Positions 30,407 to 30,607 of a stretch of 64,000 nt of DNA are shown here, piece after piece (the stretch's first letter is position 1; every line of letters starts with the position of its first letter). Under the pieces are notes generated by a model. That model was not told the DNA's origin. It was given only the letters and a program-made list of their open reading frames with translations, and ran no database searches. Origin of the DNA: Candidatus Kaiserbacteria bacterium. Lineage in GTDB: Bacteria; Patescibacteriota; Minisyncoccia; Phycocordibacterales; UBA2100. A program made the position numbers and the translations under genes. The stretch lies in assembly GCA_016432285.1 (NCBI GenBank), contig CP066682.1:352933-416932 (forward strand), given 5' to 3'.

Positions 30407-30452
30407 ATGAATATCCGCAACTTCTCAATCATCGCACCCATCGTCGCGGCAC
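30407..30452 (+). pseudogene. Displaced 5' fragment of lepA (MNIRNFSIIAPIV...)
   Basis: ATGAATATCCGCAACTTCTCAATCATCGCAC encodes MNIRNFSIIA, versus MHIRNFSIIA at the real start 30577. The Arg codon differs synonymously (CGC vs AGA). Confidence 0.75.
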
Positions 30453-30607
30453 GCCGCTCCCTGAGAACCCACGGTTCTCAGCGGTCGACCTGCGCGCACT
30501 CGGTCGACCTGCTCTCCGTCACGGGAAAACTACAGTTTTCCCGACCCCTTTCGAACGATGTGAGCGATTTCTGAATATGCACATCAGAAACTTCTCAATC
30601 ATCGCAC
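30419..30607 (+). mobile_element. ORF-less 151-bp structured insertion (module 1) bracketed by a 19-bp direct repeat of the lepA 5' end
   Basis: AACTTCTCAATCATCGCAC occurs at 30419-30437 and 30589-30607. Hairpins lie at 30461-30481 and 30522-30543. CGGTCGACCTG occurs twice (30482-30492 and 30501-30511). Confidence 0.7.

Follow-up and report, generated by a model that had tools for sequence, protein, structure and literature searches.

Our analysis indicates that the 5′ end of lepA, the gene for EF4, has been interrupted and rebuilt by a small structured insert in this Candidatus Kaiserbacteria genome, and that the reading frame left upstream of the rebuilt gene has probably been kept open by selection and couples its own translation to that of lepA, a reading that we draw from sequence comparison and hold with moderate confidence. 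The window, as we use the term, is the whole 64,000-nt stretch of contig CP066682.1 that was analyzed (positions 352,933 to 416,932 of the forward strand), and coordinates are given within it. From left to right the insert consists of a module (M), an inverted copy of lepA codons (I), an 8-nt spacer and a second lepA 5′ end, and the region reads as follows.

30389..30394, plus strand: TAGGAT, 12 nt before the displaced ATG, putative -10 box (native lepA promoter)
30407..30443, plus strand: left direct-repeat copy (A), native lepA start, codons 1-12, AHID changed to APIV at its end
30407-30574, plus strand: read-through ORF, ATG start, 55 codons, TGA at 30572-30574 (from the ORF listing and the sequence)
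30444..30555, plus strand: module M, four hairpins
30446-30457, plus strand: hairpin 0 of M, preceded by TCG and followed by CTCC
30461-30481, plus strand: hairpin 1 of M, CTGAGAACC-CAC-GGTTCTCAG
30483-30509, plus strand: hairpin 2 of M
30510-30521, plus strand: linker of M, TGCTCTCCGTCA
30522-30543, plus strand: hairpin 3 of M, CGGGAAAAC-TACA-GTTTTCCCG
30544-30555, plus strand: tail of M, ACCCCTTTCGAA
30556..30568, plus strand: inverted copy I, CGATGTGAGCGAT, 13 nt, inverse of the lepA G1 codons ATCGCACACATCG
30569..30576, plus strand: spacer TTCTGAAT, 8 nt, holding the stop of the ORF
30577..30613, plus strand: right direct-repeat copy (D′), 5′ end of the functional lepA, MHIR..., with an AGA Arg codon
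30577..32358, plus strand: functional lepA (EF4), 593 aa (from the ORF listing and homology)

The preliminary description of this DNA had reported a 55-codon frame that begins at a displaced lepA ATG and stops 2 nt short of the real one, and both the ORF listing and the sequence match that account exactly. The frame encodes MNIRNFSIIAPIVAARRSLRTHGSQRSTCAHSVDLLSVTGKLQFSRPLSNDVSDF (ORF listing of the window) and terminates at TGA 30572-30574, after which AT precedes the lepA ATG at 30577; the 593-residue LepA encoded from there is 100% identical to the EF4 of a Candidatus Kaiserbacteria MAG. The frame retains the native start and 10 native LepA residues and has lost the G1 motif (AHID to APIV), and the best explanation of this arrangement of the sequence is that the ORF represents the stump of the original lepA reading frame. 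Considered by itself, the locus is a poor guide to selection. A frame of at least 55 codons is opened by 44% of all ATGs in the window, and among 20,000 shuffles of the insert 32% were open past 30568, while 4.7% both passed this point and had their stop between -10 and +8 nt relative to the ATG. With such frequencies, the chance origin that had been allowed for from the outset is still a live explanation for lepA taken alone, and the open frame stands out as non-random only when other copies of the module are compared.

The insertion itself is real, as judged from the sequences of the window and its relatives. An imperfect direct repeat of 37 nt (32/37 identical; 30407-30443 and 30577-30613) brackets 133 nt of foreign sequence. 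In the closest relative, P0002 (loci L120, L121 and L133), LepA is 85% identical and the murJ-lepA synteny is the same; the murJ-lepA junction at L120 and L121 is uninterrupted, with 68 nt between the genes and the module absent, and the coding sequence begins ATGAATATCCGC. This start of L120 is that of the displaced left copy in the window (first 12 nt identical), whereas the functional copy reads ATGCACATCAGA and departs from L120 in codons 2 and 4, two positions at which L120 and the left copy agree. Among 120 LepA homologues, 27 begin with MN (MNIR) and only two with MH. The Arg codon is AGA at the functional lepA start and CGC in both the native displaced copy and the closest relatives. 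Because the empty sites at L120 and L121 and the N-termini of the homologues agree with the left copy, we take this copy to be the native start, and the 5′ end of lepA now in use was probably imported horizontally with the insert.

Folding of the insert places the rebuilt start within a predicted structure. In the minimum-free-energy fold, I pairs with 30601-30613 and so encloses the rebuilt AUG, and TTCTGA of the spacer is predicted to pair with TCAGAA in codons 3-5 of the rebuilt gene, leaving the AUG in a 9-nt loop. The fold z-score is -3.9, and a helix of 9-20 bp between I and the G1 codons of the rebuilt gene was predicted in all of the GTPase-type copies folded (10/10). A covariance model of the module, R1, scores 54.6 bits for 30479-30554. 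Across aligned copies, hairpin 1 shows compensatory changes, with G-U pairs solely on the plus strand; hairpin 3 and the flanking GACCCCTTTCC are invariant, in part by construction, the core having served as the search pattern for every locus. Translated, the CAC GGG AAA ACn of this invariant core (30520-30533 in the window) gives HGKT, and in translational GTPases these residues come after AHID in the G1 motif. The resemblance may be a coincidence, or hairpin 3 may be what is left of a GTPase target half-site and its inverted copy.

A covariance model search found two copies of M in the window and none beyond these, the second standing directly 3′ of a tRNA gene.

35000-35074, plus strand: tRNA-Phe(GAA), with the M copy directly 3′ of it
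35075..35160, plus strand: second M copy, 62.4 bits with R1
35161..35305, plus strand: remainder of the tRNA-Phe insert

This remainder includes an inverted copy of the tRNA-Phe 3′ end, GCCCAGA...GTCGGATTTGCA, interrupted by a 25-nt hairpin, a unique spacer of ~80 nt, and a second direct copy of the tRNA-Phe 3′ end, CAAATCTGACTCTGGGCAC (19 nt, 35287-35305; the first lies at 35055-35073), which joins the native A-rich trailer. The spacer has no repeats elsewhere, and the extra 125 nt of the tRNA-Phe insert is not a recurring module. The relative again supplies the empty site, with a tRNA-Phe that lacks the module (L133). In the tRNA-Phe copy all three frames of M are open. Elsewhere in the window, the match to class A RNase P RNA at 24922-25348 is 427 nt long against a model of 367 positions and probably holds an expansion or insertion; the module covariance model gave no match within it.

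The two copies belong to what is apparently a widespread and undescribed family of gene-end-targeting modules in CPR bacteria. Using the pattern GGGAAAACN{3,6}GTTTTCCCGACCCC on one genome per GTDB species, we found the M core at no fewer than 119 loci, almost all of them in Patescibacteria (Saccharibacteria, Parcubacteria, Kaiserbacteria, Berkelbacteria and others). A scan of viral contigs for the core gave 0 matches, Rfam returned nothing relevant for 30250-30700 and 34950-35400 at gathering thresholds or E<=10, and we found no description of the M element in the literature. Five loci (L019, L046, L056, L070 and L075) carry the bin labels Bdellovibrionales, Syntrophaceae or Bathyarchaeia; the genes beside them look Patescibacteria-like, and these loci may be on mis-binned contigs as opposed to marking cross-phylum spread.

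Every M copy among the matches listed is located at one end of a conserved gene. Read along M, the order is a direct copy of the target end, M, an inverted copy of 13-21 nt, a spacer composed of gene-flanking sequence, and the functional gene end, with an insert size of about 130-232 nt. The direct repeats measure 19-87 nt and are 70-100% identical; most of the differences between the two copies are synonymous, a pattern to be expected where each comes from a working gene. The tRNA 3′ end, from the T-loop onward, is the target in 65 of the 122 copies among the matches listed; the target tRNA lies on the strand opposite M, 26-125 nt beyond the core, the spacer is usually the tRNA terminator, and displaced tRNA copies bear CCA only where the gene encodes it. 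Other targets at 3′ ends are fusA (L009), uvrB (L096), rpmG (L089) and rplL (L053). Targets at 5′ ends carry M in sense orientation, and comprise the G1 codons of lepA, typA and fusA as well as rplN (L069), dinB (L087), murD-like genes (L101, L113) and glycosyltransferase-like genes (L117, L038). The inverted copy sometimes derives from a tRNA other than the local one (L003, L004). A left-arm ending, GCACCC(A/G)TCGTCG, recurs in the lepA, typA and fusA copies of other genomes, which indicates that the element carries parts of its arms along.

Individual loci offer further observations. At L012 (CAYTAR010000005.1, 441-7365), two identical M copies with identical flanks bracket a 6.9-kb island by a tRNA-Asn gene. 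Larger islands may rely on modules as portable homology or att regions. The ORFs of this island are, as we take them to be from translations read by eye, similar to DUF262/HNH GmrSD-like, N6-adenine methyltransferase and AbiEi/AbiEii-like defence genes. Tandem or closely spaced M copies occur at L041, L043, L059, L004 and L021 (309 or 624 nt apart, or as direct repeats of a unit to which the tRNA trailer belongs). An assembly gap terminates L021, and L138 is broken off at the module, so that the element apparently causes assemblies to fragment. At L096, the uvrB frame on the gene body appears to enter an antisense module and to gain a foreign C-terminal tail, with the native C-terminus (…LLRDEMRELSK…) displaced beyond the module. 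In a fusA insertion from the Jorgensenbacteria lineage (L136, 280-700), the rpsG-fusA spacer before the displaced start measures ~205 nt, against 15 nt in an 84% relative (L139), which points to additional inserted sequence there.

The evidence that bears most directly on selection is the behavior of the displaced frame in the other copies at 5′ ends. The preliminary description had tied its reading to whether other copies preserve an open frame, and those at 5′ ends do: of 24 distinct 5′-end copies, 23 keep the displaced-start frame free of stops across M and I, in at least seven gene families (lepA, typA, fusA, rplN, dinB, murD-like and glycosyltransferase-like), while single frames are open in 23-57% of copies at other sites. 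The equivalent ORFs run to 50-70 codons. All 12 GTPase-type copies from the genome scan can be read from the displaced start across the module, seven of these 12 being without any other open frame; a metagenome scan with the GTPase left arm contributed six more distinct copies, all open, and the displaced frame is likewise open in the rplN, dinB and murD-like copies. Under uniform scoring, from which L051 (open, with a short flank) was left out, 22 of 23 distinct copies are open for at least 16 nt past the core, and the exception, L117, has a stop 7 nt after the core and before I. For most 5′-end copies the displaced-start frame is the sole open frame. The frame-permutation product, (open frames/3) over copies, amounts to 4e-9, a value inflated by shared ancestry such that the true p is far weaker; by our estimate there are perhaps 12-15 independent lineages among the 5′-end copies, for which the probability would still be small. 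The control consisted of 104 copies at tRNA and other sites among the matches listed; the shares open in the individual plus-strand frames are 57, 50 and 23%, and 13 copies have stops in all three frames. Given these control values, openness is no inherent property of the module. Translation of the core gives TGKLxFSRPLS, RENxxFPDPF or HGKTxVFPTPF, depending on the copy; three reading frames are used, and therefore it is the open frame that is conserved and not the peptide.

The position of the stop is also shared. Apart from L117, the frame in 5′-end copies ends after I, at distances from the rebuilt start that range from -8 to +27 nt (2, 3, 13, 3, 27, 24-25, 1, 16, 9, 10, 4, -4, ~10, -8, -4, -8 and -4 nt), so that the window and other 5′-end copies have a stop within -10 to +30 nt of the downstream start, the interval that we took to define coupling. 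At three unrelated genes (L069, L101 and L123) stop and start overlap as ATGA. Such overlaps are a classic signature of translational coupling, and both termination-reinitiation and 70S scanning work in bacteria over distances this short. The proposal of termination-reinitiation, with which the ORF was originally described, thus gains support from a family-wide open frame and from the stop-start geometry, as far as sequence can speak to it.

The signals that surround the two starts are compatible with such an arrangement. The upstream ORF in the window retains the native ATG, with TAGGAT conserved 12 nt upstream; the same hexamer stands at the same distance from the lepA start at the empty site L120, and its role as the -10 box of the native promoter is plausible from sequence. 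A consensus scan, which is weak evidence, found no sigma70-like promoter in 30200-30700, the insert included, and there is no Shine-Dalgarno (SD) motif before the rebuilt start at 30577. Across the window SD motifs precede 6 of 47 starts, which is no enrichment over a background of 0.17, and TAnnnT boxes stand 6-12 nt ahead of the start in many window genes. Examples are TATACT, TACAAT and TACACT, 6-10 nt before the starts at 21815 (minus), 15824 (minus), 58817 (plus), 45862 (minus), 27648 (minus) and 57209 (plus). This suggests a genome rich in leaderless or short-leader mRNAs. Inspection of the sequence found no TAnnnT hexamer 6-12 nt before 30577. The rebuilt AUG lies 170 nt into the transcript, within the predicted clamp between I and the G1 codons, and would be poorly served without an upstream ribosome, because SD motif and promoter-like site are lacking and the clamp encloses it.

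We propose the following sequence of events. M would have inserted at the G1 (AHID) codons of lepA, bringing with it I, a short spacer and a replacement 5′ gene end. The native promoter and start would then drive the 55-codon frame through M and I, and selection would keep this read-through frame open. Ribosomes from the old start would melt the M hairpins and the I:G1 helix that encloses the rebuilt start, their passage would avoid an untranslated gap in the mRNA, and termination beside the rebuilt AUG would let them re-initiate there. Both the translation of the ORF and the dependence of lepA expression on it are what we infer from these features. Counting against coupling, the stop-start gaps of 24-27 nt in some copies are long for efficient re-initiation, and the AU-rich spacer could permit SD-independent initiation.

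An open frame might instead be a chance by-product, with lepA expressed independently of it from a spacer promoter that yields a leaderless message, or by SD-independent internal initiation. We consider this unlikely. In its favor, the shuffles left the frame open in 32% of cases at the single locus, most genes of this genome initiate without an SD motif, and inspection by eye finds TAnnnT hexamers in the spacers of several AT-rich sister copies. Chance does not account well for 23 of 24 open frames when the controls give 23-57% per frame, nor for ATGA overlaps in three unrelated genes, and the window insert has neither a promoter-like site nor a TAnnnT hexamer 6-12 nt before 30577 from which independent expression might start. 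A somewhat lower probability attaches to the idea that the module is intrinsically translatable, in the manner of Rickettsia palindromic elements, so that openness would be a property of the element as opposed to the outcome of selection locus by locus. Its invariant core is stop-free in all plus-strand frames and the tRNA-Phe copy in the window is open in all three, but 13 of the 104 copies at tRNA and other sites are closed in every frame and most have one open frame. At 5′ ends, moreover, the frame in use is the open one despite frame-shifting indels, and the position of the stop tracks the rebuilt start.

I has two alternative partners, the left copy and the rebuilt G1 codons, and the choice between them might form an RNA switch that regulates lepA independently of translation of the upstream ORF. 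We regard this as improbable, as the same module and inverted copy occur at tRNA 3′ ends and, antisense, at gene 3′ ends, where such regulation would be impossible; because the architecture is found at these sites as well, insertion and not regulation explains it. That the 55-aa product is a functional small protein is very improbable. It does keep the native start and 10 native LepA residues, but its G1 motif is destroyed (AHID to APIV) and the peptides are unrelated between copies, and we rejected it as a candidate because the module is read in three frames. A selected read-through frame that couples translation to the rebuilt lepA therefore remains the reading that we prefer.

Four models of how M moves were considered: a miniature integrative element, attP-only, for which an integrase would act in trans; a folded-hairpin substrate, by analogy with CTX phage and integron attC, in which I and the rebuilt end would reproduce the target duplex; reverse-transcriptase (RT) template switching at transcript ends; and replication template switching of the tandem-inversion-duplication type. 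The attP-only and folded-hairpin models fit because the gene end is imported and gene ends are targeted. The M insert encodes no recombinase ORF, leaving integrase action in trans as a candidate, and all-against-all clustering of ORFs of at least 100 aa at the 119 loci listed revealed no enriched recombinase, RT or nuclease family near the copies. Template switching by RT to mRNA 5′ ends is weakened by the fusA targets, which lie inside operons (in the empty L139, fusA follows rpsG after 15 nt), and by the reported absence of group II introns from Patescibacteria, and the restriction of CCA in displaced tRNA copies to genes that encode it was also counted against it. Any of the four models would also allow M to spread horizontally by homologous recombination in the conserved flanks. 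For the 'fresh' insertion at L048 we found no near-identical empty site, the nearest being an 84% relative. The genes named as targets are tRNAs, translation GTPases, ribosomal proteins, dinB and uvrB. It is possible, though we advance the idea tentatively and with more doubt than conviction, that M is a new class of structured non-autonomous mobile element of Patescibacteria, which would home to conserved gene ends via target-derived arms (direct-M-inverted-direct), move by folded-hairpin recombination or template switching, and be kept in essential genes by translation through the module and ribosome hand-over.

If these proposals hold, a selfish insertion could occupy the opening codons of essential translation genes and leave the host alive, the duplicated gene end and the open decapitated frame allowing the old promoter and start still to feed the rebuilt gene. 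A simple rule of expression would follow for SD-poor, leaderless-prone CPR bacteria, namely an open frame with a stop beside a start. Annotation of these genomes is affected as well: short ORFs may be spurious, gene starts may be called wrongly, tRNA ends occur twice and contigs break. The insertion sites at conserved gene ends, at least 119 in number and with empty and filled pairs among them, offer material for the study of a possibly new insertion mechanism.

Comparison with known systems places M between several categories. It is not a group I intron or a remnant of one, having no model match and being too small. The tRNA introns of Patescibacteria sit in the anticodon loop and are unrelated to M (PMC13011429). 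Like MITEs and mosaic repeats such as Correia, ERIC, BOX and REP/BIME, M is short, structured, non-autonomous, multicopy and co-transcribed with genes; unlike them, it is without constant terminal inverted repeats or a fixed short target duplication, its arms being copied from whichever gene is the target (tRNA, GTPase, rplN and others) and its direct repeats varying from 19 to 87 nt. The CTX-phage attP(+), integron attC and tandem inversion duplications share with M an inverted copy that folds into a target-duplex hairpin and the order direct-M-inverted-direct, but no recognizable Xer or IntI-type sites occur in M, and the likeness to the attP(+) and attC sites is one of analogy. Integrative elements with site specificity for gene ends, which bring a replacement end with them, include those of the tRNA-3′-end integrases and the casposons found at tRNA and aEF-2 genes. 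M resembles them in its choice of conserved gene ends (the tRNA T-loop and 3′ end, translation GTPases), in its flanking direct repeats of the terminal segment, and in a functional end that is apparently imported while the native end is displaced; as in att duplication, a direct repeat of the target end is present and the gene is restored. It differs in its tiny insert, the lack of an integrase or linked recombinase, the inverted target copy, the multi-hairpin module and a direct-repeat length that varies (19-87 nt).

In 2000 Ogata and colleagues reportedly described Rickettsia palindromic elements as selfish repeats inside protein-coding genes. M is likewise a small, hairpin-rich, non-autonomous repeat that enters coding sequence without breaking the frame and also occurs at RNA genes. 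Such selfish repeats within protein-coding genes are the subject of a review (PMC10969869). The Rickettsia element, however, joins the mature protein, whereas at M the end of the host gene is duplicated and LepA, read from 30577, is made without the element; the repeat is not translated inside the host protein, the read-through frame ending before the rebuilt start. Translational coupling offers the last comparison. In known cases the upstream frame is a gene or an evolved leader, while the one at lepA joins a mobile repeat to the 5′ end that lepA itself has lost, and the dependence of lepA on it is putative. The resemblance lies in the geometry: the upstream ORF in the window ends 2 nt from the downstream start, sister copies have ATGA overlaps, and the rebuilt start, without an SD motif, sits inside a predicted structure that an upstream ribosome would melt.
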